From a virus (Duplodnaviria; Heunggongvirae; Uroviricota; Caudoviricetes): DNA of 64,000 bases. The translations under genes and the position numbers were made by a program. Shown here one piece after another: positions 12,678 through 63,267 of this stretch (the stretch's first letter is position 1; every line of letters begins with the position of its first letter). The notes beneath the pieces were generated by a model that saw only the letters and a program-made list of their open reading frames with translations, was not told where the DNA came from and ran no database searches. The stretch lies in IMG/VR virus record IMGVR_UViG_3300033076_000838, positions 111,836 through 175,835 of that record, one strand, 5' to 3'.

Positions 12678-12720
12678 ATTTGGTAATCTCAGCATTCTCT
12701 CCTATCTTAGCTATGTAATC
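12678..12720 (+). promoter_or_regulatory. phage promoter cassette (variant)
   Basis: ATTTGG ... TTAGCTATGTAAT about 10 nt before the ATG at 12733. Confidence 0.45.
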
Positions 12721-19740: not shown

Positions 19741-19741
19741 G

Positions 19742-29048: not shown

Positions 29049-29059
29049 AAAATAGTAAT

Positions 29060-29533: not shown

Positions 29534-29552
29534 AAGTTGTATATTAGCTTTA
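29515..29552 (+). promoter_or_regulatory. phage promoter cassette (variant)
   Basis: AAATTTGG ... GTTGTATATTAGCTTTAT. Confidence 0.4.
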
Positions 29553-29574
29553 TAAAATTAAAACATAAAAGATT

Positions 29575-31047
29575 ATGAATCCATTATTATTGACCGATGG
29601 TTATAAGACAGGACATCACCAACAATACCCAAAAGGGACTACGTTGGTTTATTCCAATTTTACCCCACGTTCTAATAAGTACGCACCAAAAGGGTGTGAC
29701 AAAGTTGTATCATTTGGTCAACAAATGATTATGAAACAAATTCACGAGGCATTCCAAAATGAGTTTTTCTCCAAACCAAAAGATGAGGTTTGTGGTGAAA
29801 TGAAACGTGAGTTAAGTATGTATTTGGGAACTGATTATGATGTTACTCATTTTGAGAAACTACATGATTTAGGTTATTTACCAATTGCAGTAAAAGGTAT
29901 TGAGGAAGGTACAATAGTTCCTATCAAAGTACCAGTATTAACAATCTATAATACTCTACCCGAATTCTATTGGGTAACGAATTATTTAGAAACAATCATC
30001 TCAAATTTATTGTGGAAACCAATGACCTCTGCTACAATTGCACATACATATCGTAAGGTATTAACTGCTTGGTTAGCAATGACCGATATTGAAAAAGATT
30101 GGTTTATTGATTGGCAAGGACACGATTTCTCAATGAGAGGTATGGATTCAGTTGAGGCTACAATCGCAAGTGGTTTAGGTCACTTAACATCATTTAGTGG
30201 AACTGATAGTTTACCTGCAATTTATGGAGCAAGAAAGTACTATGGTGAGAAAGAATTTGTAGGCGGTTCAGTAAATGCAACCGAACATAGTGTAATGTGT
30301 GCGGGTAGTAAAGATGATGAGGTTGGTACATTCCGTAGATTATTAGAAACATATCCAACGGGTATTCTTTCAGTTGTATCTGATACATGGGATTTATGGA
30401 AAGTATGTACCAAACACGTTGTTACTTTGAAAGAAGAAATTTTAGCAAGAGATGGTAAGTTGGTAATCAGACCTGATAGTGGTGACCCTGTCGATATTCT
30501 TTGTGGAAATGGTAGAGAGGTTGATGCTTATAACGATGTTGATGGTAGAGAGCGTTGTGAAAGTAAAGGTGTTATTGAATTACTTTGGGATGTGTTTGGT
30601 GGAACTATCAACGGACAAGGTTACAAAGTATTAGATTCTCATATCGGAGCAATCTATGGTGATAGTATTACGATTGAAAGAGCTAATGAAATTTGTAAAA
30701 GATTAGAAGCAAAAGGTTTCGCATCTACAAACGTTGTATTAGGAATTGGTTCATTCACTTACCAATATAACACTCGTGATACGTTTGGTTTCGCAATGAA
30801 AGCTACTTACGTTGAGATTGATGGTGAAGGTAGAGAAATCTTCAAAGACCCAATTACCGATGATGGAACTAAAAAATCAGCAACAGGTCTATTAAAGGTG
30901 TTTAAAACAACTTTGGAAGGTGATATTGTATTACATGACCAAGTTAGTTGGGAAGAAGAGAGCGAAGGTATATTACAAACCATTTATGAAAATGGTGAGT
31001 TCTATAACGAAACAACTTTGACAGAAATTAAAAATAGATTAAAATAA
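29575..31047 (+). CDS. nadV: nicotinamide phosphoribosyltransferase (NAMPT / NadV-like)
   Basis: N-terminal LLLTDGYKTGHHQQYP is the NAMPT signature; 490 aa. Confidence 0.65.
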   Translation: MNPLLLTDGYKTGHHQQYPKGTTLVYSNFTPRSNKYAPKGCDKVVSFGQQMIMKQIHEAFQNEFFSKPKDEVCGEMKRELSMYLGTDYDVTHFEKLHDLGYLPIAVKGIEEGTIVPIKVPVLTIYNTLPEFYWVTNYLETIISNLLWKPMTSATIAHTYRKVLTAWLAMTDIEKDWFIDWQGHDFSMRGMDSVEATIASGLGHLTSFSGTDSLPAIYGARKYYGEKEFVGGSVNATEHSVMCAGSKDDEVGTFRRLLETYPTGILSVVSDTWDLWKVCTKHVVTLKEEILARDGKLVIRPDSGDPVDILCGNGREVDAYNDVDGRERCESKGVIELLWDVFGGTINGQGYKVLDSHIGAIYGDSITIERANEICKRLEAKGFASTNVVLGIGSFTYQYNTRDTFGFAMKATYVEIDGEGREIFKDPITDDGTKKSATGLLKVFKTTLEGDIVLHDQVSWEEESEGILQTIYENGEFYNETTLTEIKNRLK

Positions 31048-33467: not shown

Positions 33468-34598
33468 ATGGAAAATTTAAATTCAATTTGCTACATTGCA
33501 ACAATTAATGAGATTAACCCAATTGAGGGTGCGGATAACATCGAACTAGCAGTAGTTGGTGGGTGGAACTGCATCACCAAAAAGGGAGAACAAAAGATAG
33601 GTGATTTGGTAATGATTGCTACAACCGATGCAATTATCCCATTTGAGTTATCCGAAAAGATGGGCGTTACTAACTATCTACGAAAAGGTGGTAGAGTTAG
33701 GACAGTAAAATTAAGAGGCGTTTATTCAGAATGTTTAATCATCCCAATCCAACATATTCCATTTATGGAAAACTATTATGAAGGTAAGGATATGATGAAA
33801 GTGATGGGTATTTACAAATACGAACCACCTGTTAAAATGGTTCAACTTGCAGGTGGTAGAAAGATTCGTTATCAAGACAATCCTAATTTCCATGTGTACT
33901 ATAAGTTCCCTAACTTAAAGAATGTGCCGGGAATGTTTACCGAAGAAGACACGGTCGAAATCACTCGTAAGATTCACGGAACTAATGCCCGTTATGGTAT
34001 TGTTAAGAAAAACAAATTATCATTATGGGATAAAATTAGAAAGTTTATTGGATTAGCAGATAAGTGGATTGAATACGAATTCGTAGTTGGTTCGCATAAT
34101 GTGGAGAAGGGTTCAGATTCTAACGGATTCTATGATACTAATGTTTGGTATGAAATCGAAAAGAAATACAACATCAAACAAAAGTTATGGGATTATGTTA
34201 AGGATGATGCAATGGAACCTGAAATCGGTGATGGTATTACCTTATATGGTGAGATTTACGGAGCGGGAATCCAAAAGGGATATGATTATGGGTTGAAAGA
34301 GATTGAGTTCGTAGGATTCGATGTAAAGGAGGAAGGTGAGTATTTAGACCCAATCAATTCAAAGTTGTTAATCGAACATATTTTGGAATTACCATATGTG
34401 GAGCAATTATATTATGGTAGATGGTCACAAGAAGTGCAAGATAAGTATGTATTCAATAACTACATCAAAGGTACGAAAGTACCAGAAGAGGGTATTGTAA
34501 TCAAACATCAATCTAAGGGAAGAGAAAAAATAGCAAAGGTAATCAACCCTGATTATTTAATCTTCGCTGAAAAACATAACGTAGGTGATTCACACTAA
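33468..34598 (+). CDS. ATP-dependent RNA ligase (Rnl2 family) with an N-terminal tRNA-binding OB domain
   Basis: Motif I TRKIHGTNA (T4 Rnl2 has EKIHGTN), motif IV EGIVIKH, and a KIAKV motif V. The N-terminal roughly 130 aa resemble the Myf/CsaA tRNA-binding fold (EGADNIELAVV...IGDLVMIA). Confidence 0.65.
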   Translation: MENLNSICYIATINEINPIEGADNIELAVVGGWNCITKKGEQKIGDLVMIATTDAIIPFELSEKMGVTNYLRKGGRVRTVKLRGVYSECLIIPIQHIPFMENYYEGKDMMKVMGIYKYEPPVKMVQLAGGRKIRYQDNPNFHVYYKFPNLKNVPGMFTEEDTVEITRKIHGTNARYGIVKKNKLSLWDKIRKFIGLADKWIEYEFVVGSHNVEKGSDSNGFYDTNVWYEIEKKYNIKQKLWDYVKDDAMEPEIGDGITLYGEIYGAGIQKGYDYGLKEIEFVGFDVKEEGEYLDPINSKLLIEHILELPYVEQLYYGRWSQEVQDKYVFNNYIKGTKVPEEGIVIKHQSKGREKIAKVINPDYLIFAEKHNVGDSH

Positions 34599-36031: not shown

Positions 36032-36211
36032 ATGGATAGATTGCATGTTGTTAATTGCACGATTGATGACCATATCTTAAATCATCCTCTTACGGAACAT
36101 CACAAAGATATACAAGATAAAATTGGAGATGCCTTAGAATTATTATTTGAAGCTTACCAAATGGTTGGCAATGAAAGTTACGAATATGATAAAGAGAATA
36201 ACACACATTAG
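36032..36211 (+). CDS. small hypothetical protein
   Basis: Internal ATG of ORF 35975-36211. Confidence 0.25.
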   Translation: MDRLHVVNCTIDDHILNHPLTEHHKDIQDKIGDALELLFEAYQMVGNESYEYDKENNTH

Positions 36212-36965
36212 TGATACACACAACAAACACAATCAACTTACCGATAAATTATCAGGTGGGGATATTCTCATTCATAGTGGGGATATATCTTCGTTAGGTA
36301 GAGAACGCGAAGTTGAAGGGTTTATCAAATGGTTTAATAAGATTGAGGGTTATACTCACAAAATCTTTATTGCCGGTAATCACGATATGTCTTTTGAATC
36401 TGAAATCTTAATGCAAAATAAAATTGATTATTTTGATGGTAAAAGGACAGTATGGGAAACCGAAGGTAATACACATTTTCCATCAAACGGAAAACCACAA
36501 TGGTTGGATATATTGTTAAATTCATGCTTAAACGATAATGTTTATTATTTAGAAAATTCTGACATTACAATTGATGGATTAAAGATTTGGGGTTCTCCTA
36601 TTACACCAACGTTTGGATATAATTGGGCATTCAACAAAGATAGAGGGCATGATATTAATGAGGTGTGGAGTAAAATTCCAACTGATACTGATATTGTTAT
36701 TACACACGGTCCAATCTTTGGATATTGTGATAGAACTGATAGAGGTTATTTAAATGTAGGGTGTGAAGATTTATACCACCGATTAAATGAAATTAAACCA
36801 CACTTACACTTTTCGGGTCACATCCACGAAGCATATGGATATAGACACACCGGGTGGGGTTATGCGTTTAATGGATGTAATTGTGATTTAAGTTATTTAG
36901 TAAATAACAAACCACTTACATTTGATTATGATTTTGAATTGAAAAGTATTATAGATTTTATATAA
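36186..36965 (+). CDS. calcineurin-like metallophosphoesterase (second copy)
   Basis: ITHISDTHNKHN, GDISSLG, IAGNHD and GHIHE blocks; the start is ambiguous (36147 or 36186). Confidence 0.55.
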   Translation: MIKRITHISDTHNKHNQLTDKLSGGDILIHSGDISSLGREREVEGFIKWFNKIEGYTHKIFIAGNHDMSFESEILMQNKIDYFDGKRTVWETEGNTHFPSNGKPQWLDILLNSCLNDNVYYLENSDITIDGLKIWGSPITPTFGYNWAFNKDRGHDINEVWSKIPTDTDIVITHGPIFGYCDRTDRGYLNVGCEDLYHRLNEIKPHLHFSGHIHEAYGYRHTGWGYAFNGCNCDLSYLVNNKPLTFDYDFELKSIIDFI

Positions 36966-37433
36966 ATGGAAACAAATAAAAAAATATGGTTATATTTGGA
37001 TGATGTAAGAACTCCAACTGATAGCAAATGGCAAGTGGTTAGAAACTACGATGAGTTTATTGCACACATCCGTATGAATGGGTTGAATAATTACGAATTG
37101 ATTTCATTAGACCACGATTTAGGAGATACTGCAATGAATGAGTATTTCAACAACGTTTCACCTAACTATACCTTAGATTACAACAACATACAAGAGAAGA
37201 CTGGATTGCATTGTGCTAAATGGTTGGTGAATCAATTTTATAACGAAAATCCAAAATGGAGTAAGTTAGCAAGAGATGTGAAAAAGGGTAAACCATTTCC
37301 ATTTCCAAAAGTATATGTTCATTCAGCAAACCCAATCGGTTCTGCTAATATGATGGGATATATAAACAATTTCTTTATGAACGAAGCCCAACCACAAACA
37401 TGTATTAGGGTTAATATAGAACACACAATTTAA
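36966..37433 (+). CDS. hypothetical protein
   Basis: ORF track. Confidence 0.45.
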   Translation: METNKKIWLYLDDVRTPTDSKWQVVRNYDEFIAHIRMNGLNNYELISLDHDLGDTAMNEYFNNVSPNYTLDYNNIQEKTGLHCAKWLVNQFYNENPKWSKLARDVKKGKPFPFPKVYVHSANPIGSANMMGYINNFFMNEAQPQTCIRVNIEHTI

Positions 37434-46277: not shown

Positions 46278-46366
46278 AGAGAGTTGGCCGAGTTGGTTGA
46301 TGGCACCGGTCTTGAAAACCGGCAGATGTAAAAGTCTCGGGGGTTCGAATCCCTCACTCTCTGCCA
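46278..46366 (+). tRNA. tRNA-Ser (anticodon TGA), type II, CCA encoded
   Basis: Acceptor AGAGAGT/ACTCTCT, anticodon loop CTTGAAA, long variable arm, T-loop GGTTCGAATCC. Confidence 0.8.
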
Positions 46367-46370
46367 AAGT

Positions 46371-46580
46371 ATGATGTTAGAGTTCAAAAAACCAATACCA
46401 GTAGTAGTAGAAGGTAACAAAGATGGATACGCAATCTACGTTACTGATAGTGGTATGTTTGAAAATGATATTTGGTGTGTAGTATTATGTGATGGTGGTA
46501 TAGTTAGACATTACAATTCATCTCAAATAAGGATTTTTCATAACGCAACATTTGACATCAAAAAAGATAATAAATTGTAG
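46371..46580 (+). CDS. small hypothetical protein
   Basis: ORF track. Confidence 0.4.
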   Translation: MMLEFKKPIPVVVEGNKDGYAIYVTDSGMFENDIWCVVLCDGGIVRHYNSSQIRIFHNATFDIKKDNKL

Positions 46581-46748
46581 TGTGTTGGAATTGATTGTGT
46601 AATAACAATCGTGGCAGACAAGCCCTCCTGTCTCGGGGGTGGTGAGAACGAAATAGGTTAGTAATATGGGGTAGACCACCATCCGGCCGGAGAAGTGTTA
46701 TTAACTGAATCGCATCGTGGAGTGTTCGAATCCTCCCACTACAGCAAA
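46576..46748 (+). ncRNA. tRNA-like element of abnormal length (about 173 nt): canonical T-loop plus an acceptor-like pairing TGTAGTG/CACTACA
   Basis: 3' end GGAGTGTTCGAATCCTCCCACTACAG pairs with TGTAGTG at 46576, but the D and anticodon arms are not canonical. Could be an intron-containing or degenerate tRNA. Confidence 0.25.
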
Positions 46749-46770
46749 AGTAAAAAGTTCTTTAACATAT

Positions 46771-47116
46771 GGGGATGTCTGGTATTGACAGATATGAAGT
46801 GTTAGTACAACTGCAAGCAAGGTTAGATGGAAACCTTTGAATACCTATCAAACAATAAACGGCGTTAATAACTACGCTTTGGCTGCCTAATCCCAAAGGG
46901 AAAAGACAACCTCGGGTCGATGCACATTAAACCTCGGAACACAAGTGCTTACAAAGGTGGAAACCAATTGAACCCAAAATCGAATTGGAAACATTAATGA
47001 TAACGAATGTATAAATCTTTATCTATTTTGTTCAGTTAGAAAACGGAACTAAGCTTGTGAATGAAGTTTATTAAACCATATTTTGGACGGGGTTTCGATT
47101 ACCCCCATCTCCACCA
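46771..47116 (+). ncRNA. ssrA: tmRNA (SsrA), tag peptide (A)GVNNYALAA
   Basis: 5' GGGGATGTCTGGTATTGACAG and 3' GGACGGGGTTTCGATTACCCCCATCTCCACCA match the tmRNA tRNA-like domain, with a G3-U70 pair. Internal GGC GTT AAT AAC TAC GCT TTG GCT GCC TAA at 46861-46890 reads GVNNYALAA plus stop. Confidence 0.85.
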
Positions 47117-47276
47117 TTTTTTACGTTTTGTATATTTTTATATATTTATACATACGTTTTGGAATAAGGGTTGAAGCCAACAACTAATAAAACCGATTGT
47201 GTGAACATCTTTCCAACTTATTAGCGGAGGGGTTAAAAAGCCGGATACCCTTAATTCAAAAAAAAAATAAAAAAAG

Positions 47277-47314
47277 ATTTGGAAATATGAAAACTATTTC
47301 GTATCTTTACAAAG
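47277..47314 (+). promoter_or_regulatory. phage promoter (short form) driving the initiator tRNA
   Basis: GATTTGGAAATATGAAAACTATTTCGTATCTTTACAAAG. Confidence 0.5.
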
Positions 47315-47345
47315 TAAAAAGAAAACGTTCTTTAAAATATTATAT

Positions 47346-47417
47346 CGCAGGGTAGAGCAGTGGTAGCTTGGTGGGCTCATAACCCATAGGTCGGAGGTTC
47401 GAATCCTTCCCCTGCAA
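47346..47417 (+). tRNA. initiator tRNA-fMet (CAT)
   Basis: C1-A72 mismatch; three consecutive G-C pairs closing the anticodon stem (GGG-CTCATAA-CCC). Confidence 0.75.
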
Positions 47418-47442
47418 CTAAATAAAAAAACTTTAAAAAAGA

Positions 47443-47479
47443 TTTGGAAATATGAAAACTATTTCGTATCTTTACAAAG
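47443..47479 (+). promoter_or_regulatory. phage promoter (short form), duplicate
   Basis: Identical to the 47277 copy. Confidence 0.5.
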
Positions 47480-47535
47480 TAAAAGAAACCAACCAAACAA
47501 CACAACTATTTTTTAACAATTTAAACAATTAGTAT

Positions 47536-47694
47536 ATGACAAAGTTTTGGAAGTGGTTCGAAAAGTATGGATTTTTAGTTTTAGGTATTAGTAACCTATT
47601 ATGTTTTAATCCTTACAATGCAGTAATTGGGTTAGTATTTATTACCTGGTTTATTGTAGACAAAAAAAATAATAAAAAAGATTTGGAAAATTAA
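47536..47694 (+). CDS. small TM protein (52 aa)
   Basis: MTKFWKWFEKYGFLVLGISNLLCFNPYNAVIGLVFITWFIV...; its 3' end overlaps the next promoter. Confidence 0.3.
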   Translation: MTKFWKWFEKYGFLVLGISNLLCFNPYNAVIGLVFITWFIVDKKNNKKDLEN

Positions 47695-47719
47695 AAAAGT
47701 TTTCGTATCTTTACAAAGT
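47682..47719 (+). promoter_or_regulatory. phage promoter (short form) preceding the ORF-free RNA region
   Basis: GATTTGGAAAATTAAAAAAGTTTTCGTATCTTTACAAAG. Confidence 0.5.
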
Positions 47720-47759
47720 AATCAAACGGATTACAAAAAACGTTCTTTAAAATTATTGA

Positions 47760-49195
47760 AAATATTGTACATAGTAGACTTGTTCTACATAGTACATACC
47801 CGCCGCATATGGTGGTTAAATAAACTTGGAAACAAGGATAAAGTGAATACAATGGTTATTGTGTTTGCGGTTTCATCTTCGGATGGAGCTTGAGTATGCA
47901 AGTGGAATATCATTAGACCTGATTAGTGAGGGTAACTCCGTAGTGAAATGGTTTGATGACTGGGCTCTAGTAGAAGTTCAGTTGAGGTAGGAATATCAAT
48001 AAGAATAATCCATAGAGTTATTGCAAGAAGTAAGGACTTAATCTCTCCTTATCATTGCGTGATTCAATATTAGAGGTTGCTTAAAACCGAAAGGTATGTT
48101 GATGTACAGGTGGTGCTGTTATTTACCTTACCTACATCTCACCAAAGAGTGGGTAATGAAGTAATCTTAAAGTATGACGTTAGAGATAACGTATCGAGTA
48201 GTATAGTATTCCGTTCTTCAAAATGGAACGGAGCTAGTGGTAATCCACTACTTGAATTCATCTACAACCAAAACTCAATTTGCTATTGGTGCAAACTATA
48301 AACAAATAAAGAGAAAGAGGTTACCAGTTGCAGACGAAAGGTGTGTACATAGTAGGGAGTTGTTCCCTGCCACAAATCCCCTCAAAGGAGATGTGATTCT
48401 TTCGAAAAGCTTCTAGCACTGCGAGGTGTTAATCGGGTCGGCGGATTCGAAGAGGTAGAGTACGAAGAGAGTAGTTTGTAACTTTATGAGTGGTAGGCAT
48501 TACTTACCCACATTGAATTGGTACTTCTCAAAAGGAAGTGGAAATTAAGGCAACCCATAACCCTTATAAAGCTGGTTCACAATATGGAGTATTCTCATCC
48601 TTATATTTTTACAATGGTTGTATATTGGTTCGATTCCAATAGTAAAAGCTTCGTAGTGGTTTACGCCAGATTGGTTCGATGTACCTTCGAATAACTGAAT
48701 ACCACTTAAAATAAAAAAGAAAAAAGGTATAATGGTATGGTTTTCCGTAGGGGATTTTCGCCTTAAAGAATCTCAATGATACGAATTTAATTGATGGTAA
48801 GTAACGGATGTAGCTAGTCCTTTGAAAGAACCACCCTACAAAATCTTTCTTTTTTAAACGAACTAATCCTTCGAGGCTTATATTAACCAGAGCATGACTT
48901 GGATGGAGTATTTTGAAGATGGATTAGTTTTTTTATTTAGCTAATAACAAAAAAACAAACAAACGTTACGAAAAAATAATTTTTAGATATTTATAACAAG
49001 ATGAAAAACTTAGCATTACATACAAACAACCAATTACCTACACAAAGACGTGAGTGGGCTGGGAATTGTATGTTTAGTACGATAGTCCTTCCGCAAGCAG
49101 AATTGAATTTTGGCAAGGTAGATTATATTAGTACTCCGTTAAGGGAAGCATCAGGTTGGTAATGATGTAAGATTTAAATAGAAAATATTTGAAGA
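47760..49195 (+). ncRNA. candidate large structured noncoding RNA (about 1.4 kb ORF-free, GC-richer region inside the tRNA array)
   Basis: Promoter at 47682 and terminator at 49197-49229. No ORF longer than 75 aa on either strand. UUCG and GNRA-type hairpins such as CATCTTCGGATG, and tRNA-like T-loop fragments such as ATTGGTTCGATTCCAAT at about 48617. Confidence 0.4.
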
Positions 49196-49196
49196 A

Positions 49197-49229
49197 CCCT
49201 TAACTGATAAAAAAGTTAAGGGTTTTTTC
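49197..49229 (+). terminator. intrinsic terminator
   Basis: CCCTTAAC-TGATAAAAAA-GTTAAGGG plus TTTTTT. Confidence 0.6.
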
Positions 49230-49235
49230 GTATAA

Positions 49236-49307
49236 GGGTTGGTAGCTCAGAGGCAGAGCAATGGTCTGTTAAACCATAGGTCGAGATTTCGAAATTCTCC
49301 CTTCCCT
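49236..49307 (+). tRNA. tRNA-Asn (GTT)-like; acceptor stem has U4-U69 and U5-U68 mismatches
   Basis: D arm GCTC/GAGC, anticodon loop CTGTTAA, T-loop TTCGAAA; acceptor GGGTTGG/CCTTCCC is imperfect. Confidence 0.5.
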
Positions 49308-49325
49308 CAATTAGTTCTTTGATAT

Positions 49326-49397
49326 GCGAATATCGTATAGTGGTTATTACTCCTTCCTTCCAAGTAGGAGACGTAGGTTCGATTCCTACTATTCGCT
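49326..49397 (+). tRNA. tRNA-Gly (TCC)
   Basis: Acceptor GCGAATA/TATTCGC; anticodon loop CTTCCAA. Confidence 0.65.
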
Positions 49398-49405
49398 CAA
49401 TAAAT

Positions 49406-49477
49406 TGCCCGATGGTGTAATGGTTAGCATACATCACTTTGACTGATGTAGTATAGGTTCGAATCCTATTCGGGCAT
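49406..49477 (+). tRNA. tRNA-Gln (TTG)
   Basis: U1-A72; anticodon stem CATCA/TGATG; loop CTTTGAC. Confidence 0.7.
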
Positions 49478-49483
49478 CAATTA

Positions 49484-49559
49484 GGAGATTAGCTCAGTTG
49501 GTTAGAGCATTTGGTTTACATCCAAAGGGTCATAGGTTCGAATCCTATATCTCCTACCA
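49484..49559 (+). tRNA. tRNA-Val (TAC), CCA encoded
   Basis: Acceptor GGAGATT/ATCTCCT; loop TTTACAT. Confidence 0.75.
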
Positions 49560-49566
49560 TTTAAAT

Positions 49567-49648
49567 GCCGACGTCGCATAGTGGCAATTGCAAGGGACTG
49601 TAAATCCCTCCTCTTCGGAGTTCGTAGGTTCGAGTCCTACCGGCGGCA
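49567..49648 (+). tRNA. tRNA-Tyr (GTA), type II
   Basis: Anticodon stem AGGGA/TCCCT, loop CTGTAAA, long variable arm. Confidence 0.7.
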
Positions 49649-49656
49649 CAACAAAT

Positions 49657-49729
49657 GGAGCTTTCGTATAGCTGGTGCGTACGTTGGACTGAAAATCCAA
49701 AGGACGAGGTTCGATTCCTCGAGGCTCCA
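49657..49729 (+). tRNA. tRNA-Phe (GAA)
   Basis: Acceptor GGAGCTT/AGGCTCC; loop CTGAAAA. Confidence 0.75.
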
Positions 49730-49735
49730 CATAAT

Positions 49736-49809
49736 GAATCCGTAGCTCAGTTGGTTAGAGCACCTCACTTTTAATGAGGGAGTCAATGGTTCGAGTCCAT
49801 TCGGGTTCA
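49736..49809 (+). tRNA. tRNA-Lys (TTT)
   Basis: Acceptor GAATCCG/CGGGTTC; loop CTTTTAA. Confidence 0.75.
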
Positions 49810-49814
49810 CATAT

Positions 49815-49890
49815 AGGGTAATAGAGGAGTCCGGTCTATCTCGCTTCGTTTGGGACGAAGAGCACGCAGGTTCGAATCCTGCTTACCCTA
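49815..49890 (+). tRNA. tRNA-Pro (TGG)
   Basis: Acceptor AGGGTAA/TTACCCT; anticodon stem CTTCG/CGAAG, loop TTTGGGA. Confidence 0.7.
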
Positions 49891-49896
49891 CAACAC

Positions 49897-49970
49897 TGGT
49901 AGTTAGCTCATTTGGTTAGAGCATCTCGCTGATACCGAGAAGGTGGCAGGTTCGAATCCCGCACTACCAA
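49897..49970 (+). tRNA. tRNA-Ile (GAT)
   Basis: Acceptor TGGTAGT/ACTACCA; loop CTGATAC. Confidence 0.7.
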
Positions 49971-49981
49971 CTTTGAAATAC

Positions 49982-50052
49982 ACGAGTATGGTGCAATGGT
50001 AGCATACGGCTCTCCAAAAGCTTTGATGTGGGTTCGAATCCTACTACTCGTG
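49982..50052 (+). tRNA. tRNA-Trp (CCA)
   Basis: Acceptor ACGAGTA/TACTCGT; loop CTCCAAA. Confidence 0.65.
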
Positions 50053-50115
50053 CTAAATGAATAAAACTATGAAACAATTATTTGACAAACATTAGGTAAC
50101 GAAACCTAATGTAAA

Positions 50116-50307
50116 ATGAAAGAAGAAAAAGTAAAAAAAATGAATGCAATCTACAACTATTGTATGATTTGCAACAAACGAAATGGTAGTTGGTACTATG
50201 ATTGTCACCCATCATCATTTGGAGCAAAAAGACATGGTAGTGGTAAGATTGTAAGAGTAAGAGAGTGTAAAAGTTGGAAACACAACCGAAAGACTCAATG
50301 GAAGTAA
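50116..50307 (+). CDS. small basic Cys-containing protein embedded in the tRNA array
   Basis: ORF track; CMICN...C...C. Confidence 0.35.
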   Translation: MKEEKVKKMNAIYNYCMICNKRNGSWYYDCHPSSFGAKRHGSGKIVRVRECKSWKHNRKTQWK

Positions 50308-50311
50308 AGAT

Positions 50312-50383
50312 AGTTCCGTAGTTTAACGGATAGAACAATTGGCTACGAACCAGTAAATGGGAGTTCGATTCTCTCCGGAACTA
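50312..50383 (+). tRNA. tRNA-Arg (ACG)
   Basis: Acceptor AGTTCCG/CGGAACT; anticodon stem ATTGG/CCAGT, loop CTACGAA. Confidence 0.7.
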
Positions 50384-50390
50384 CACAATT

Positions 50391-50463
50391 GTCAGGTTGG
50401 CCGAGATGGTTTAGGTGGTGCTCTGCAAAAGCATTTACGTTGGTTCGAATCCAACACTTGACT
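50391..50463 (+). tRNA. tRNA-Cys (GCA)
   Basis: Acceptor GTCAGGT/ACTTGAC; loop CTGCAAA; short D stem. Confidence 0.6.
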
Positions 50464-50468
50464 CAGAT

Positions 50469-50538
50469 TGCGTGACTTAGTGGAAAAGAGTTATCTCTCA
50501 TAAGGATGACCAATTGAGTTCGAACCTCAAACACGCAA
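50469..50538 (+). tRNA. tRNA with CAT anticodon (elongator Met or Ile2 type); D arm atypical
   Basis: T arm TTGAG-TTCGAAC-CTCAA; loop CTCATAA; acceptor TGCGTGA/ACACGCA. Confidence 0.45.
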
Positions 50539-50543
50539 CATAT

Positions 50544-50629
50544 AGAGAGTTACCCAAGTTGGTGAAGGGGCCTGTTTGCTAAACAGGTAGGATGTAAAAG
50601 TCGCAAGAGTTCGAGCCTCTTACTCTCTA
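50544..50629 (+). tRNA. tRNA-Ser (GCT), type II
   Basis: Acceptor AGAGAGT/ACTCTCT; loop TTGCTAA; long variable arm. Confidence 0.75.
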
Positions 50630-50649
50630 CGGAAAAAAATAATACTTAT

Positions 50650-50723
50650 GTCCGTATGGCGTAATTGGCAACCGCACTGGTCTTAGAAACCAGTTTGTGT
50701 AGGTTCGAATCCTACTATGGACA
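50650..50723 (+). tRNA. tRNA with TAG anticodon (reads CUA, Leu by the code) but with a short, type-I variable arm
   Basis: Acceptor GTCCGTA/TATGGAC; perfect anticodon stem CTGGT/ACCAG; loop CTTAGAA; 5-nt variable loop. Confidence 0.55.
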
Positions 50724-50748
50724 CAAAACTAAAAAAAAAGGTAATACT

Positions 50749-51207
50749 ATGGTTTTTAAAAAATTACAATCGAAAGAAGAAATCCAATTGGTTCAGTACA
50801 TTAAAGAGTATATGGAATTAAATACTGATGCTGAGATATTGATTGGTTGTGATTCACAAAACTCTCGTAGTAAAACTATTTACGCAATTGTAGTAGCATT
50901 ATATAGACCGGGTAAAGGTGGTCATGTTCTTTATAGAAAATGGAGTACTGAAAGAGAAAGAGTTCGTTCTATTAGATTATTACAAGAAGTTTGGTTTGCA
51001 ATTGAAACTGCAGAATACTTAAAAGAGAATGGTGTTAAAAAACCTAAGTGGATTGATGTGGATTTAAATCCAGACCCACGATACAAATCTAATGAGGTAT
51101 TCAGACAGGCAGTTGGTATGGTTGAAGGTATGGGATATTCAGTAAGGTATAAATCCTTAGGTCCTATTGCAACATATTGTGCTGACCATTTAGTAAAAAA
51201 TAATTAA
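50749..51207 (+). CDS. hypothetical protein, possibly an RNase H-like fold (weak)
   Basis: Start trimmed to the ATG after the tRNA (the ORF-track start lies inside the tRNA). ILIGCDSQNS...YAIVVALYRPGKGGHVL is weakly RNase H-like. Confidence 0.4.
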   Translation: MVFKKLQSKEEIQLVQYIKEYMELNTDAEILIGCDSQNSRSKTIYAIVVALYRPGKGGHVLYRKWSTERERVRSIRLLQEVWFAIETAEYLKENGVKKPKWIDVDLNPDPRYKSNEVFRQAVGMVEGMGYSVRYKSLGPIATYCADHLVKNN

Positions 51208-51214
51208 ACAAATG

Positions 51215-51252
51215 TTTGGATATATTAAAATAAATTCGTATATTTGTTAAAC
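51215..51252 (+). promoter_or_regulatory. phage promoter cassette
   Basis: TGTTTGGATATATTAAAATAAATTCGTATATTTGTTAAAC. Confidence 0.5.
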
Positions 51253-51279
51253 AATTAGGGAGAACGTTCCCTAATACAT

Positions 51280-51350
51280 CGCGAGGGGGAGGTAAGGTAT
51301 TTCATTGGTCTCATAAGCCAAACTAAGTGGGTTCGATTCCCACCCTACGC
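51280..51350 (+). tRNA. tRNA with CAT anticodon (Met or Ile2 type); acceptor and D arms imperfect
   Basis: Anticodon stem TTGGT/GCCAA, loop CTCATAA, T arm GTGGG-TTCGATT-CCCAC. Confidence 0.45.
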
Positions 51351-51371
51351 AACAAAAAAATGTTAAAAAAG

Positions 51372-51409
51372 ATTAGGAAATTTAAAAATTATTTCGTATC
51401 TTTACAATG
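51372..51409 (+). promoter_or_regulatory. phage promoter (short form) driving tRNA-His
   Basis: GATTAGGAAATTTAAAAATTATTTCGTATCTTTACAATG. Confidence 0.45.
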
Positions 51410-51439
51410 TTCTTTGAGATGATGGTTAGTAAGTAATAT

Positions 51440-51514
51440 GGTGTTTGTAGCTCAACTGGTTAGAGCATCCGATTGTGGTTCGGAAGGTTGTGAGTTCGAA
51501 ACTCATCATTCACC
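51440..51514 (+). tRNA. tRNA-His (GTG) with G-1; acceptor has U4-U69 and U5-U68 mismatches
   Basis: Extra 5' G pairing with C73; D arm GCTC/GAGC; loop TTGTGGT. Confidence 0.65.
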
Positions 51515-51587
51515 CAAGGGGTTTTCAGTCCCAAGTGCTGGTTAGATGAAACACGCTATCCGTATGAGCCCATCAAAACTGAAACTT

Positions 51588-51659
51588 GCTCGGTTCGACA
51601 AGCGGTTAAGTCACGTCCCTTTCACGGATGAGTCACGGGTTCGATTCCCGTACCGAGTA
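51588..51659 (+). tRNA. tRNA-Glu (TTC)
   Basis: Acceptor GCTCGGT/ACCGAGT; anticodon stem CGTCC/GGATG; loop CTTTCAC. Confidence 0.6.
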
Positions 51660-51962
51660 CAAGACATACATCAGCCACATTAATTCCTTCAACCATATTG
51701 AGAGGTTAGTGTATGTTTAGGTAAGAGAGAAGAAGTGGTTGGGACATCTCTTTTACCGATAATATTGTATCAAATGTGCAGTGAAAATTGATGTAGGCAT
51801 ACATTGATGAGGTGGGTTCGATTCCCGTTTAATAATTCTTAGGTCAAAAGCCGGAGGAAGAAGCCAAGTAATTGAGAACACATTATAGCCGGAGTGGGTG
51901 TGCACCTCGTCTAGAGACCCTAATAGTTCCTAATAGGTCGGTATGGAACTGATACATAATTT

Positions 51963-52035
51963 GCCTCCTTAGCTCAGTTGGTAGAGCATCTCATTTGTAA
52001 TGAGAATGTCACTGGTTCGAACCCGGTAGGAGGCT
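51963..52035 (+). tRNA. tRNA-Thr (TGT)
   Basis: Acceptor GCCTCCT/AGGAGGC; loop TTTGTAA. Confidence 0.75.
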
Positions 52036-52329
52036 CGAGTGGATTCATCAGTTGATGAAAACCAATCGGGGGTTGTCCCACTAGAATGGAAACATCCCCT
52101 GCAAATAATGGCTCTATAATTGTTGAGGTCGCACCAAAAGCAATGAGTGGGTGAATGATGATTGAATGTAGCAATCTCCTTAATACTAGGATTGGAGTGT
52201 AAAATTGTTCATACATTTAGTAAGTAGTTCATAAGATGGGTTCGATTCCCATTAGAGTCTCAATGATTACTGAAATTGAATGATACGAGTCCTCAAAGTT
52301 CGAAAAGAGTCAGGCAGTAATCGTTATTT

Positions 52330-52406
52330 GGTGTATTGGTGTAGAGGCCCAACATGCTTCCCTGTCACGGAAGAGACCACGAGTTCGAATCTCGTATACA
52401 CCGCCA
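52330..52406 (+). tRNA. tRNA-Asp (GTC), CCA encoded
   Basis: Acceptor GGTGTAT/ATACACC; anticodon stem CTTCC/GGAAG; loop CTGTCAC. Confidence 0.75.
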
Positions 52407-52407
52407 T

Positions 52408-52479
52408 GGCTCCATAGGTAAAGGGATATACCGCCTCTCTTCTAAAGAGGATTTTCAAGTTCGAGTCTTGATGGGGCTA
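52408..52479 (+). tRNA. tRNA-Arg (TCT)
   Basis: Acceptor GGCTCCA/TGGGGCT; D stem GGTA/TACC; loop CTTCTAA. Confidence 0.7.
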
Positions 52480-52526
52480 CATAACATTAAAACATTAAAC
52501 CTTAAAATAAACCAAAACAAAATTGT

Positions 52527-52937
52527 ATGCAAAATCTTTTTATTAGTATTATTATGTTGTTTTTACCATTAGAGGTTACGACAACAAATGTAGAAATTGA
52601 AGAAAGTAGTAATTTAGAAGAGTTAGGAGTAGTGACGGTCACAACTTACAAACCAACATCAGGAGAAACTGATTCTACACCAAACGTTACCGCAAGTGGA
52701 TTTAAGATTAGTAAGAAGAATCCTAAGAAACACCGAATCATCGCAGTAAGTCGTGATTTAAAACGTAAGTTAAAATTCGGACAGAAAGTTCGATTGAAGA
52801 ACGCAGGTAAGTATAATGGTGAGTATGTTGTAAGGGATGTAATGAATAAGAGATATAAAAAACGTATTGATATTCTAATCAACCCAAAAGACAAACAAAC
52901 AAAACTTTCAAAAGTGAAAGTCTATAAAGTGAAATAG
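52527..52937 (+). CDS. 3D-domain (MltA / YuiC-like) cell-wall hydrolase-like protein
   Basis: TTYKPTSGETDSTPNVTASG...IIAVSRD...LKFGQKV...GEYVVRDVM...RIDIL matches the three-Asp 3D-domain pattern; N-terminal signal segment. Confidence 0.5.
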   Translation: MQNLFISIIMLFLPLEVTTTNVEIEESSNLEELGVVTVTTYKPTSGETDSTPNVTASGFKISKKNPKKHRIIAVSRDLKRKLKFGQKVRLKNAGKYNGEYVVRDVMNKRYKKRIDILINPKDKQTKLSKVKVYKVK

Positions 52938-52942
52938 AGTTT

Positions 52943-53028
52943 GCCCCGATGGAGAAACTGGTAGACTCGCAGCACTTAAAATGCTGTTCGCCGTAAGGAG
53001 AGTGCAGGTTCAAATCCTGCTCGGGGCA
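52943..53028 (+). tRNA. tRNA-Leu (TAA), type II
   Basis: Acceptor GCCCCGA/TCGGGGC; loop CTTAAAA; long variable arm. Confidence 0.8.
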
Positions 53029-53131
53029 CAATGTAATGATTCGAAAGAATAGCGGAACGGATGCTAAGAATGAAATGGAAACAATTGAAGCTCGTATAAA
53101 GGAGTGAATTTGAAACAAACCGCACAGACAT

Positions 53132-53215
53132 TACATTATTTGGGGGTGTAGCTCAGTTGGCTAGAGCACTTGCCTTGCACGCAAGGGGTCGTGGGTTCGA
53201 GTCCCTCCTCCTCCA
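53132..53215 (+). tRNA. tRNA-Ala (TGC) with G3-U70; U6-U67 mismatch
   Basis: Acceptor GGGGGTG/CTCCTCC; loop CTTGCAC. Confidence 0.65.
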
Positions 53216-53267
53216 CTATCGTTGATATAAACGATAAAAACTATTATCATCAATATAGATGATATTA

Positions 53268-53344
53268 GGGCTTGTAGCTCATTCGGTTAGAGCAACTGAC
53301 TCATAATCAGTAGGTAATAGGTTCGATTCCTATCTGGCCCACCA
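53268..53344 (+). tRNA. tRNA-Met (CAT), CCA encoded; U6-U67 mismatch
   Basis: Acceptor GGGCTTG/CTGGCCC; D arm GCTC/GAGC; loop CTCATAA. Confidence 0.7.
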
Positions 53345-60927: not shown

Positions 60928-60957
60928 AAGGTCATCATTATATGGTGGCCTTTTTTA
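60928..60957. terminator. bidirectional intrinsic terminator between convergent gene blocks
   Basis: AAGGTCATC-ATTATAT-GGTGGCCTT, flanked by T-runs on both strands. Confidence 0.55.
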
Positions 60958-61338
60958 TATTAAAGAATTGGTGTAGTTATTACCAAAGTTTTTTAAGATT
61001 ATGTTATTGAAATATTGTTTATAAAAAACACCTGCAGGAGCATTTGTTAAGATTTCCATAAATACATAATCAACAACAATTTCATCTCCAACATTTATAT
61101 TACAATTTGCATATAAATCATATCCATCTAAATTGATGGTTTCTTTTACATAGGTATTTGGTGTATTTGAATGATTACAATATCTACCCAACTCTCTATC
61201 ATACCATCCGTAAATATTTTTTGGATATTCTTTAATCGGTGTATTTTTATAATATTCACCTATGAATTCATCTTTTACAAATATCTTTGTTGCAAATACT
61301 GCTTTACCTTTTATTTTAGTATCTAAGATAGAATACAT
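60955..61338 (-). CDS. SET-domain protein (putative protein-lysine methyltransferase)
   Basis: RYCNHSNTPN (NHSxxPN motif) and the C-terminal GDEIVVDY post-SET-like block. Confidence 0.5.
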   Translation of the reverse strand: MYSILDTKIKGKAVFATKIFVKDEFIGEYYKNTPIKEYPKNIYGWYDRELGRYCNHSNTPNTYVKETINLDGYDLYANCNINVGDEIVVDYVFMEILTNAPAGVFYKQYFNNIILKNFGNNYTNSLI

Positions 61339-61955
61339 TATAATAAATGTTTTAAACTATCATCACTATAAAAATCAACACCATTAAATTTCGTATGCCA
61401 TATGACATATTGGTTGTTTTGAAATAATCGATGGTGTTTCCATGAATCTGGCCAAGATGCTACCTCTTCATCGGTAAACGTTATAATTTCAGAATTTAAT
61501 TTACTATTAGGGTGATAGTGTGCATAATAGGTTAATATTGTCCCTTCTTTACAATTAGGTTTAACCATATCCATAAAAAATGGAAGATTTCCATCAGTAT
61601 CGGTATCAAAATATACACCATCAAATTTTTTATCTTCTAATGGTAATACATCTACCCAATTACCAAAAATAACATTTATTGGTATAGTTTTTGTCTTTGC
61701 CCATTCTAATGCTCGTTGATATTGTTGTGGATGAATTTCTATGACAGTATAAGATGTTACGTTTGGATTACTTGTAATGAAATCTGCAGAGATGTGCATA
61801 CCAAATCCTAACTCTAAAATATCACCACCATTTTGTATAGTAATTTCTGCCATACGTTTTGATATTTTAGTTTCACATACGTGCATTATTGTATGATTAG
61901 TTTCTGGATTATAAATCCCCTCATCAGTAATAATAATATTTTCAGTTCCGTTCAT
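61338..61955 (-). CDS. class I SAM-dependent methyltransferase-like protein
   Basis: GGDILELGFGMH, a glycine-rich motif I. Confidence 0.45.
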   Translation of the reverse strand: MNGTENIIITDEGIYNPETNHTIMHVCETKISKRMAEITIQNGGDILELGFGMHISADFITSNPNVTSYTVIEIHPQQYQRALEWAKTKTIPINVIFGNWVDVLPLEDKKFDGVYFDTDTDGNLPFFMDMVKPNCKEGTILTYYAHYHPNSKLNSEIITFTDEEVASWPDSWKHHRLFQNNQYVIWHTKFNGVDFYSDDSLKHLL

Positions 61956-62659
61956 TACAATATAGTTGTTGGTTTATTTAAGTTTGGATGTTTTATATAA
62001 ATAGATGATTTTTGTAATGAGTTGAAATCTAATAATGTTAAATCATTTTCTGGTTTATATGTTGGAATATATTTGTTAATTTTATAATCGGTATCTAATA
62101 AAAATTTATAAAACCATACCCAAACTGATTCATTTGGTTTTGAATTTGACTTTCCTTTTACTTGTCTAATATTACCACTTTCAGTTTCATATACAATTAT
62201 CATATGACTTATATTTGAATCTTTGGTTTGTTCTCTTAACTCTAATGTAGTATGACCGTAATTTACTCTACCACAATCCTCCATTCTAAGCATGGATTCA
62301 ATACAAAACAATTTTTGTAAATCTATCCAATAAAATCCAATCCCATTTTCTCTATAATCTAAAATAATTTTATTTTTCTCTATATAATTTTGAGTATCGT
62401 AGGTTTTTTTATATTGATTAAAAAAATTTATCCATATATTTTGAATTTTGGTTAATGATATTGCATCTAATGATTCATATGATATAGTTGTGGAATCTAC
62501 ATAATTACAAAGATGATATACCATATTTATTATATCCGATTTTTTTATGGAATTAATATCATCAATATCATTTTTCAACTTATTAAAAATAATACTACCC
62601 AAATCTGGTCCTAATATTTTATAAATCTCTTGCTCTCTTTTGGATAATTTGCTTGACAT
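61955..62659 (-). CDS. hypothetical protein
   Basis: ORF track; translationally coupled to its neighbours. Confidence 0.45.
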   Translation of the reverse strand: MSSKLSKREQEIYKILGPDLGSIIFNKLKNDIDDINSIKKSDIINMVYHLCNYVDSTTISYESLDAISLTKIQNIWINFFNQYKKTYDTQNYIEKNKIILDYRENGIGFYWIDLQKLFCIESMLRMEDCGRVNYGHTTLELREQTKDSNISHMIIVYETESGNIRQVKGKSNSKPNESVWVWFYKFLLDTDYKINKYIPTYKPENDLTLLDFNSLQKSSIYIKHPNLNKPTTIL

Positions 62660-63267
62660 TATATTAAAGTTTTATCAGATTTTTTATAAAATTCTACATT
62701 TACATCGTATTGTATCGATTGCGATTTGATTTTATTTATATCGTTTAAATTACTTATATCAAATCCGTTTTCGATTAAAAAACTAATTGATGTTTCTAAA
62801 TCATTACATACGTTTTTATATAATTCATTATTTAAACTTACTTCAATTTTACCTGCACGGATTGATTGTAATTTATCACCAAATGATTTTAATATTGTCA
62901 AATCATTACCTTGTGCATCGCAGTGAAAATAATCAATAATATCAATATTGTTTTGAATTAAAAATGTATCCATTCTAATAACATCAACCAATACTTGAGA
63001 TACATATTTAATTTTGGTATTCTCTTTTGAAAATGTAGATAATTCATATAAAGATGATGATTGTCCATCTGCTGAAATATTAAATGTGGATGTGCCATCA
63101 AAATCACTAACAGCCTTTTCTATTATTTGAATGTTTGTATTATTTTTAAATTTATATCGTAATGTTTTTGCAAGAAATGGATTTGGTTCAAATGACCATA
63201 TTATAGCATCTTTGAAAAACTTAGAAGTATTACCACCATCATTAGCACCGATTTCTATTATATTCAT
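62659..63267 (-). CDS. FkbM-family methyltransferase
   Basis: MNIIEIGANDGGNT N-terminus. Confidence 0.5.
   Translation of the reverse strand: MNIIEIGANDGGNTSKFFKDAIIWSFEPNPFLAKTLRYKFKNNTNIQIIEKAVSDFDGTSTFNISADGQSSSLYELSTFSKENTKIKYVSQVLVDVIRMDTFLIQNNIDIIDYFHCDAQGNDLTILKSFGDKLQSIRAGKIEVSLNNELYKNVCNDLETSISFLIENGFDISNLNDINKIKSQSIQYDVNVEFYKKSDKTLI

Follow-up and report, generated by a model that had tools for sequence, protein, structure and literature searches.

We analyzed a stretch of 64,000 nucleotides (nt) from a viral record (IMG/VR IMGVR_UViG_3300033076_000838, positions 111,836 to 175,835), hereafter called the window, which contains a gene for transfer-messenger RNA (tmRNA, ssrA). Our analysis indicates that this is very probably a functional tmRNA gene of a large phage, with a role in ribosome rescue, Bacteroidota-type expression signals and a mosaic tag cassette. 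By alignment with its relatives, the window tmRNA is a mosaic within its lineage: a short host-like cassette, made up of the tag and the second pseudoknot (PK2), stands in place of a conserved tag of 24 residues.

ARAGORN and Rfam both place the gene at exactly the coordinates given in a preliminary description of this DNA, which had been made from the letters alone. The covariance-model search that this description proposed returned a match of the 346-nt gene to the full RF00023 model (model positions 1-374), with an E value of 1.3e-30 and 82.8 bits, where the gathering score is 47. In the ARAGORN call the tag frame occupies gene positions 91-120 and encodes GVNNYALAA followed by a stop codon; direct reading gives the same frame (GGC GTT AAT AAC TAC GCT TTG GCT GCC TAA), as had been claimed. 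The alanine identity set is complete, since the G3-U70 pair and the encoded 3' CCA, both named beforehand, can be read directly from the sequence and the discriminator is A73. Relative to the resume codon GGC there is a U at -5 and an A at -4, which we take to be the counterparts of U85 and A86 in E. coli. Every tmRNA feature listed in the preliminary description is present at the position assigned to it.

Relatives of the gene were found by way of a neighbouring radical-SAM protein, which led to three loci in IMG/VR. Two of these, L001 (88% amino acid identity, on a 45-kilobase (kb) contig) and L002 (75%, 229-kb contig), have the same gene order as the window, namely tRNA-Ser, tmRNA, tRNA-Met, GOLLD RNA and a tRNA array. 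The family was collected with an 18-mer that is invariant in the tmRNAs of the window, L001 and L002. This 18-mer occurs in 51 viral contigs, many of them 100 to 288 kb long, and ARAGORN called a tmRNA in most of them. With the window, L001 and L002 included, the family comprises 45 tmRNA calls and 39 distinct sequences. Against cultured phages (50,697 records), blastn with the tmRNA was negative, and a megablast of the 20 kb around it gave only a trivial match of 160 nt, so that there is no cultured relative at the DNA level. Neither the 3' end of the window tmRNA nor its tag codons had an exact match when viral contigs were scanned for them.

The fold was evaluated on the 39 distinct family members, the window, L001 and L002 being counted among them. 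Failure of the acceptor or T-arm pairing had been named beforehand as a result that would speak against a tmRNA. The acceptor stem is completely paired (7/7) in all 39 members with 15 distinct stems, and the T-arm is completely paired (5/5) in all 39 sequences (100%) with 16 distinct stems and with compensatory changes at all 5 pairs. The G3-U70 pair is invariant (39/39), and the discriminator is an A in 38 of 39 members. The structure that was tested in the 39-sequence alignment was drawn on the window and contains the acceptor stem (H1), two segments of helix 2 (H2a and H2d), pseudoknots 1 and 3 (PK1 and PK3), a 3' hairpin and the T-arm. H1 was scored separately because MAFFT misregisters some of the 5' ends. 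Covariation over the whole structure was 0.271 compared with 0.126 +/- 0.007 in shuffled alignments (0/500 reached the value) and at most 0.125 with slid partners. Compensatory changes were found in H2a (7/8 pairs), in stem 1 of PK1 (AU:26/CG:13 and GC:29/UA:8), in stem 2 of PK3 and in every T-arm pair; H2d is 100% paired. The fourth pseudoknot (PK4) is uninformative with respect to covariation because it is identical in L029, and the 3' hairpin, as placed, is poorly supported. Together, these comparisons indicate that the tmRNA signal is well beyond chance and that its features are retained in homologues from 39 distinct viral sequences.

Most members of the family encode a tag of 24 residues, xVELSTMTFEDAMAFVGADYAVAA, with the consensus [A/D/G][V/E]E[L/K]S[T/S][M/F]TFEDAMAFVGADYAVAA. 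Among 16 distinct 24-codon frames there are 7, 6 and 17 variable sites at codon positions 1, 2 and 3, and the ratio of non-synonymous to synonymous polymorphism (pN/pS) is 0.35. This codon-position pattern, together with the low ratio, argues that the long-tag frame is translated and constrained as a peptide. The pseudoknot regions of the long-tag tmRNAs are mosaic between members.

The window tmRNA was compared with these relatives segment by segment. Positions 1-93 and 256-346, which include the tRNA-like domain, helix 2, PK1 and the 3' part, are 75-97% identical to the long-tag relatives. Positions 94-180, with the tag, the next hairpin and PK2, are at background identity to them, and positions 181-255 (PK3-PK4) are 88-100% identical to L029 and L042, both of which retain the long tag. 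The best match changes along the gene: it is L031 (93%) for positions 1-41, L089 for positions 42-180 (90% at 42-90, tied with L029; 87% at 91-120; 72% at 121-180), L029/L042 (88-100%) for positions 181-255 and L001/L020/L031 (about 89%) for positions 256-346. The simplest reading of this segment map would be repeated recombination between phage tmRNAs.

The locus L089, which lies on a 266-kb contig, was found by scanning viral contigs for N-N-Y-A-L-A-A-stop. It shares the backbone of the family, as the 90% identity at positions 42-90 shows, and encodes the same tag peptide with the codons GGC GTT AAT AAC TAC GCA TTA GCA GCG TAA. At positions 121-180, where L089 is 72% identical to the window, the other relatives remain at the background of 43-57%. 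Between the tags of the window and L089 there are 4 synonymous changes and no non-synonymous one, for which the chance is about 0.004 (6.7 of 27 sites are synonymous). The restriction to synonymous differences indicates that the short tag is a translated peptide under purifying selection. Of the helix that follows the tag, only a small CCC-AAA-GGG hairpin (CCC-NNN-GGG) is conserved in L089. Stem 2 of the PK2 candidate differs between the window and L089 by one compensatory change, GCAC/GUGC in the window versus GAAC/GUUC in L089.

The cassette junction also occurs in an independent metagenome (ENA ERZ28594481). A 616-nt contig from it, L060, is 95.7% identical to the window and spans the region from a small upstream ORF (open reading frame) to the first 106 nt of the tmRNA, ending in …AACAATAAAC GGC GTT AAT AAC TAC G. 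Because this contig crosses the junction into GGCGTTAATAACTACG and so reproduces it, the junction is not an assembly artefact.

The short tag could in principle mark a decaying relic, that is, a tmRNA of the lineage which lost 45 nt of its tag frame and fell out of use. With 346 nt the window gene is shorter than its relatives (about 375 nt), and its Rfam score of 82.8 bits is below those of L001 (91.2) and L002 (111.5). The loss of 15 codons from 24 would leave the observed 9. An alignment of the tag ends is also possible (AVE...DYAVAA versus GVN-NYALAA). A simple 45-nt deletion was nevertheless rejected as the sole source of the short tag, because the sequence beyond the stop codon has no relation to that of the long-tag relatives either, and because L089 has the whole cassette. 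The tRNA-like domain and PK1 are intact. Furthermore, the divergent L089 has kept the cassette with its synonymous-only tag changes and the compensatory change in PK2. We consider decay very improbable and retain the reading of a replaced cassette in a working tmRNA.

Signals for expression in the window were searched for in promoter-like repeats and in the leaders of ORFs. A repeat family, D2, is present in five copies, each with TTTG, 20 nt and TATCTTTA. Promoter-like repeats are enriched on the + strand and lie directly upstream of ORFs and RNA genes (Table 1). The strict promoter motif occurs 5 times compared with 0.2 expected (0/100 shuffles). A relaxed form, TTTG-N18-21-TAnnTTT[AG], was found 13 times on the + strand and 4 times on the - strand, the mean in shuffles being 2.8; most of its copies are located 5-62 nt before ORFs, and copies lie 35-37 nt before two tRNA-Met genes. 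We take the motif of TTTG, about 19-21 nt and TAnnTTTG to be the -33/-7 promoter consensus of Bacteroidota. A Shine-Dalgarno-like motif is present in only 3 of 66 ORF leaders, compared with a background of 9.6%, and the leaders consist of 54% A. Such A-rich leaders without Shine-Dalgarno are, we assume, typical of Bacteroidota. Promoter motifs and leaders together probably point to a host at the level of this phylum.

The leaders of the long-tag relatives likewise lack Shine-Dalgarno, and the strict promoter motif occurs in many of these genomes. A distant group of tmRNAs, with tags of the form ANNN…LAA, comes from genomes in which 31-48% of the leaders have a Shine-Dalgarno-like motif. The shared leader and promoter type suggests that long and short tags coexist within the same apparent host phylum, with no host effect at the phylum level. 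Protein neighbours were uninformative as a guide to the host: the phages that match the NAMPT protein have many different hosts, and no cultured phage matches the radical-SAM protein.

The native SsrA tag of Bacteroides is GETNYALAA, which causes strong degradation when it is fused to a reporter (bioRxiv 10.1101/2025.03.18.644028). The window tag equals it at 7 of 9 positions, in line with the earlier view of a Bacteroidetes-type tag. Bacterial tmRNAs with exactly GVNNYALAA are rare and were seen in one genome of the GTDB (L055) and one metagenome contig (L056); both are one-piece tmRNAs of about 400 nt. The former (CAZRQL010000007.1, 2940-3340) belongs to a metagenome-assembled genome labelled Roseobacteraceae. 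Since the tmRNAs of Alphaproteobacteria are two-piece and permuted, this contig may be mis-binned.

The surroundings of the gene are of a phage type. Nearly all ORFs of the window are on the + strand and densely packed, with a G+C content of about 32%, and the tmRNA is about 17 kb from the nearer end. ARAGORN finds 26 RNA genes on the + strand: the tmRNA and 25 tRNA genes, which cover all 20 amino acids, include three with the anticodon CAT and have nearly the same order in L001 and L002. A full-length GOLLD RNA is found at the same place in L001 (14627-15036) and L002 (14850-15259), and the scores range from 261 to 268 bits. In L012, a T4-type DNA polymerase (phrog_262, E 2e-161) and GroEL adjoin the tmRNA. 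An origin from a large phage is supported by the IMG/VR classification, by syntenic contigs of 45 to 288 kb and by the T4-type DNA polymerase of L012. The tmRNA had been regarded as phage-encoded, and we share this view on the basis of the syntenic viral relatives and the gene content.

It had also been suggested that the phage carries RNA-repair genes of its own. The window indeed encodes a set of this type, which consists of two HAD_SAK_2 proteins, a 2H/2'-5' RNA-ligase-like protein, cREC_REC, an AAA_33 kinase, metallophosphatases and an Rnl-type RNA ligase. The ligase belongs to the phage-type phrog_968 (E 1.7e-60), and the 2H phosphoesterase-like protein has weak similarity to Acb1.

The phage tmRNA may be co-transcribed with a tRNA-like RNA that lies upstream of it (see below) and be released by RNase P. 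For its action we propose, from established tmRNA biology, the following mechanism. The tmRNA would be charged by the alanyl-tRNA synthetase of the host and, with an SmpB that is presumably also the host's, would enter ribosomes that have stalled at the 3' end of an mRNA that is broken or lacks a stop codon. Translation would then switch template, resume at GGC, add (A)GVNNYALAA and end at the UAA with release of the ribosome. The tagged fragments should be destroyed by host proteases, because the tag matches the Bacteroides degron at 7 of 9 positions. The tmRNA, the full tRNA set, the RNA ligase, the kinase, the phosphatases and GOLLD may form a module that sustains translation while RNA is being cleaved, either by host defences and nucleases or in the course of the phage's own takeover, when the supply of host tmRNA may fail. 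Because 25 tRNAs, GOLLD and RNA-repair enzymes adjoin the tmRNA, the likely benefit would be that ribosomes are kept available during infection. The arrangement fits large phages that sustain translation under RNA attack.

A number of results weigh against a rescue tmRNA that belongs to a phage. An SmpB was not found by Pfam or NCBIfam scans of about 50 window ORFs or by tblastn, in a search that covered 64 kb of a genome which is probably larger than 200 kb. The best tblastn match, with E. coli SmpB as the query, had an E value of 1.6 and fell on an ORF (17585-18076) that is negative in Pfam and NCBIfam; the phage tmRNA likely uses host SmpB. No Bacteroidota-type promoter motif is located directly upstream of the tmRNA, and because it is lacking there we can only infer the transcription unit. 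Sites for sigma-70 promoters and terminators, scanned for around the tmRNA, were no more numerous than in shuffles. A motif, GTTCTTTAAMATAT, precedes both the tmRNA and tRNA-Met (2 occurrences compared with 0.45 expected; 7/100 shuffles), which is not significant alone.

In the structure, stem 1 of PK3 is paired in only 33% of the cells and is weakly supported, while stem 2 covaries. PK2 is also weakly supported, and the Rfam posterior probabilities are low across the PK2-PK4 region. A helix 5 of the classical form (CUUUGG/CCAAAG), whose loop holds the stop codon, can be drawn, but it is not kept in L089. Scans for G-V-N-N-Y-A-L-A-A-stop, one in GTDB genomes and one in JGI metagenomes, did not reveal a donor of the cassette; each gave one bacterial-type tmRNA (L055 and L056), and both are dissimilar to the window outside the tag. 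A tmRNA with the tag GENNYALAA, L088, equals the window at 35 of 38 nt across the tag; because the match of 38 nt is too short, it provides no proof of a transfer. Capsid, portal and terminase genes were not detected among the window ORFs with Pfam and PHROGs (large ORFs for PHROGs), and because no structural phage gene has been identified in the window, the term phage rests on relatives and gene content. Finally, it is the gene neighbourhood only that makes a benefit of coping with RNA damage plausible.

The lack of an identified structural gene is also what one would expect if the gene were a host ssrA that entered the record through a prophage end, a chimeric assembly or a bacterial island. 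The genes for tmRNA are common integration sites of prophages, and the NNYALAA scan of viral contigs returned mostly GENNYALAA tmRNAs of 393-399 nt, many of them near DNA ends, as would be the case for host-like genes beside prophages. The window gene is different. It lies about 17 kb inside the window amid densely packed genes on one strand and the 25-tRNA array, is 346 nt long and has only the tag codons in common with bacterial-type tmRNAs. The same gene is found in the same order in viral contigs of 45 to 288 kb, and the junction is reproduced by an independent assembly. We give almost no credence to a host origin of this kind.

That no SmpB gene was found in the window bears on a further possibility, in which the phage tmRNA acts as a decoy or competitor. 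Drawing on the host pool, it would occupy SmpB and stalled ribosomes and so block or redirect host trans-translation, for instance to disable a stress or defence response that depends on it. The very different, conserved 24-residue tag in most relatives also suggests a role of the tag beyond the mimicry of a degron. A decoy, on the other hand, requires neither a translated frame nor a degron, while the window tag is a near copy of a host-type degron under purifying selection and every element for productive trans-translation is retained. Together, these points make a decoy improbable, and a tmRNA that takes part in productive rescue remains our preferred reading.

The coexistence of two tag types raises a more speculative idea, which we put forward tentatively and regard as rather less than even in likelihood. 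The tag part may be an exchangeable cassette whose choice is adaptive. The 24-residue peptide would then be more than a plain degron and might, for example, direct proteins to a particular adaptor or protease or serve a phage-specific purpose, while a few members (the window, L060 and L089) would mimic the degron of the host. If this is true, the choice of cassette tunes the fate of proteins from broken mRNAs during infection. Close relatives with either a long or a host-like short tag on otherwise similar tmRNAs would constitute a natural experiment on the purpose of the tag.

A structured RNA of about 172 nt precedes the tmRNA. It is nearly invariant in L001 and L002, in which the flanking spacers vary. 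Nine more of the related loci, among them the ENA contigs L060 and L061, have a homologue that lies upstream of the tmRNA and on its strand; another is found in L019, for which no tmRNA was called. The element occurs once per genome in a subclade of related phages, and the spacing to the tmRNA is 16-24 nt in the window and L001. The two RNAs are farther apart in L002, where about 700 nt (about 12010-12704) are inserted between them; by eye, in alignment A2, the insert contains an apparent ORF that starts with ATG and has its TAA just before the tmRNA.

The fold of the 172-nt element has 41 pairs (the consensus plus one pseudoknot stem), with 95.8% of the cells paired. Its covariation is 0.347 compared with 0.148 +/- 0.016 in shuffles (0/500) and at most 0.132 with slid partners; 17 pairs show compensatory changes. 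The closing stem has 8 bp and ends with the 3'-terminal G of …UACAG; an invariant CA comes next on the 3' side. The element further has an optional variable hairpin, an arm of about 85 nt, a T-arm and a 6-bp stem, the 7-nt loop of which (CUGUCUC) is able to pair with an invariant AGACA in a possible pseudoknot. ARAGORN at default settings makes no call on the element, and Rfam has no match at E<=1. An ordinary tRNA was rejected, since the tRNA-Ser(aga) with an 81-nt intron that ARAGORN proposes under relaxed settings contradicts the covarying helices. The element is thus a candidate for a new family of tRNA-like RNAs of phage tRNA islands, and it may belong to the same translation-takeover module as the tmRNA. 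The species 1 and species 2 RNAs of phage T4 are stable tRNA-like RNAs encoded in the phage tRNA cluster. Like these, the 172-nt element is structured and non-decoding, has tRNA-like ends and is located among phage tRNA genes; unlike them, as far as a comparison by description goes, it has a long covarying arm and a possible pseudoknot.

The coordinates of the features are collected in Table 1.

Table 1. Positions of the tmRNA gene, its structural parts and associated features. Coordinates refer to the window unless a locus is named.
Feature	Coordinates	Strand	Details and source
tmRNA (ssrA) gene, 346 nt	46771-47116	+	ARAGORN and Rfam RF00023
Acceptor stem H1, 5' strand GGGGAUG	46771-46777	+	pairs with 47106-47112 CAUCUCC; includes G3-U70; sequence
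Helix 2, 5' strand	46789-46818	+	H2a 46789-46796 with 47077-47085; H2d 46813-46818 with 47053-47058; Rfam alignment
PK1	46819-46849	+	stem 1 46819-46824 with 46832-46837; stem 2 46826-46830 with 46845-46849; drawn from sequence
Tag frame (resume codon GGC, GVNNYALAA, stop TAA)	46861-46890	+	ARAGORN
Replaced cassette (tag, hairpin, PK2)	46861-46950	+	segment identities and alignment A5; homologous only to L089
PK2 candidate	46912-46948	+	stem 1 46912-46916 with 46933-46937; stem 2 46922-46925 with 46945-46948; drawn from sequence
PK3	46956-46988	+	stem 1 46956-46958 with 46972-46974; stem 2 46964-46969 with 46983-46988; drawn by hand
PK4	46991-47023	+	stem 1 46991-46995 with 47006-47010; stem 2 46999-47003 with 47019-47023; drawn by hand
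T-arm (stem GGGGU/ACCCC, loop UUCGAUU)	47089-47105	+	covariation in 39 sequences
Acceptor 3' strand, discriminator and CCA	47106-47116	+	3' strand 47106-47112; discriminator A 47113; encoded CCA 47114-47116; sequence
Long-tag tmRNAs	L001 12837-13211; L002 12705-13080		about 30 further viral loci
tRNA-like structured RNA, about 172 nt	46575-46746	+	ends 24 nt upstream of the tmRNA; alignments A2 and A4
RNA gene island	46278-53344	+	25 tRNA genes, tmRNA and GOLLD; ARAGORN and Rfam
GOLLD RNA	48194-48601	+	261.5 bits; between tRNA-Met and the main tRNA array; Rfam
Copy of the D2 promoter motif	47278-47309	+	37 nt upstream of tRNA-Met
Promoter-like repeat TTTGG-N15-TTCGTATCTTT[A/G]	47242-47315, 47407-47480, 47646-47719, 51179-51252, 51337-51410		
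Further promoter-like repeat sites	16077, 16725, 23256, 35106, 45311		
RNA-repair-type genes (as a set)	19712-20841, 21243-21815, 26716-27138, 33468-34598, 36147-37433		

Other parts of the window also deserve mention. The genes in the neighbourhood of the tmRNA include, besides the radical-SAM protein, an SPFH protein. Two small ORFs among the RNA genes of the island, at 46371-46580 (+) and 47536-47694 (+), encode 69 and 52 amino acids; identical products occur in several independent metagenomes, so that they may be real genes. Within the tRNA array the ORF at 50665-51207 (+), which overlaps the end of a tRNA-Leu, encodes an RNase H-like domain (PF04308, E 2e-20). Hairpins that resemble T-arms (GGGTTCGATTCCC) lie at 51804-51829 and 52228-52253 (+), in spacers of 300 nt that separate called tRNAs and in which ARAGORN and Rfam (E<=0.1) make no call. 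The hairpins may be further tRNA-like RNAs or remnants of tRNAs. Outside the island, a nicotinamide adenine dinucleotide (NAD) salvage pair, PRPP-synthetase-like and NAMPT, occupies 28188-31047; Bacillus phages and spring-water metagenomes provide its nearest phage homologues (about 55% identity). At 1936-4108 (+), genes for a cupin, a cytidylyltransferase-like protein and a DegT-family aminotransferase follow each other, which suggests a pathway for sugar-nucleotide modification. The only block on the - strand consists of five back-to-back ORFs of 127-234 amino acids at 60955-63965, where the G+C content is lowest (23-29%).

Phage tmRNAs as such are already known. They have been found in the mycobacteriophages Bxz1, Catera and Wildcat (PMC1475703), the translation genes of huge phages include tmRNA and sometimes SmpB (PMC7162821), and genome papers on jumbo phages often list tmRNAs. 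The preliminary description, in which a tmRNA in a phage was called uncommon, overstated the case in view of these reports. GOLLD RNAs have been described in tRNA clusters of phage origin (PMC6582537). In a limited literature search we found no description of a 24-residue tag family, of an exchange of tag/PK2 cassettes or of a minority tag that mimics the host, which is weak evidence of novelty. What the window adds is another phage tmRNA, from an uncultured lineage of jumbo phages, and a well-supported case of a phage with its own ribosome-rescue RNA in a lineage that apparently infects Bacteroidota. Other phage lineages also combine a tmRNA with a tRNA array, as indicated by an unrelated 210-kb viral contig (L078), in which a tmRNA with the tag ADNNYALAA (6621-6983) lies inside a tRNA array of its own.

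In its architecture the window tmRNA resembles the bacterial one-piece tmRNA (RF00023), with a tRNA-like domain, helix 2, PK1, a startless frame that ends in YALAA and a stop codon, further putative pseudoknots and a T-arm. Its tag is even identical to that of the rare bacterial tmRNAs L055 and L056. It differs from the bacterial-type tmRNAs that we retrieved (393-401 nt) in its length of 346 nt and in its location within a phage tRNA island. Beyond the tag codons and the generic tRNA-like ends it has no similarity to bacterial tmRNAs, and its pseudoknot region is a mosaic of modules from the phage lineage.

Close counterparts are the long-tag tmRNAs of L001, L002, L029, L031 and others, with which the window shares the order tRNA-Ser, tRNA-like RNA, tmRNA, tRNA-Met, GOLLD and tRNA array as well as the promoter motif and the leaders without Shine-Dalgarno. 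The tag of the window differs from theirs in having 9 residues instead of 24, and the sequence after the stop codon and PK2 are unrelated. Like the tmRNAs of huge phages and mycobacteriophages, the window tmRNA occurs in a large phage together with a large set of tRNAs; the reports on those phages list the genes without an analysis of tag or structure (PMC7162821, PMC1475703). Unlike those cases, the window, in which no SmpB was found, has an apparent host among the Bacteroidota and belongs to a lineage with 24-residue tags in which a short cassette has been swapped in.

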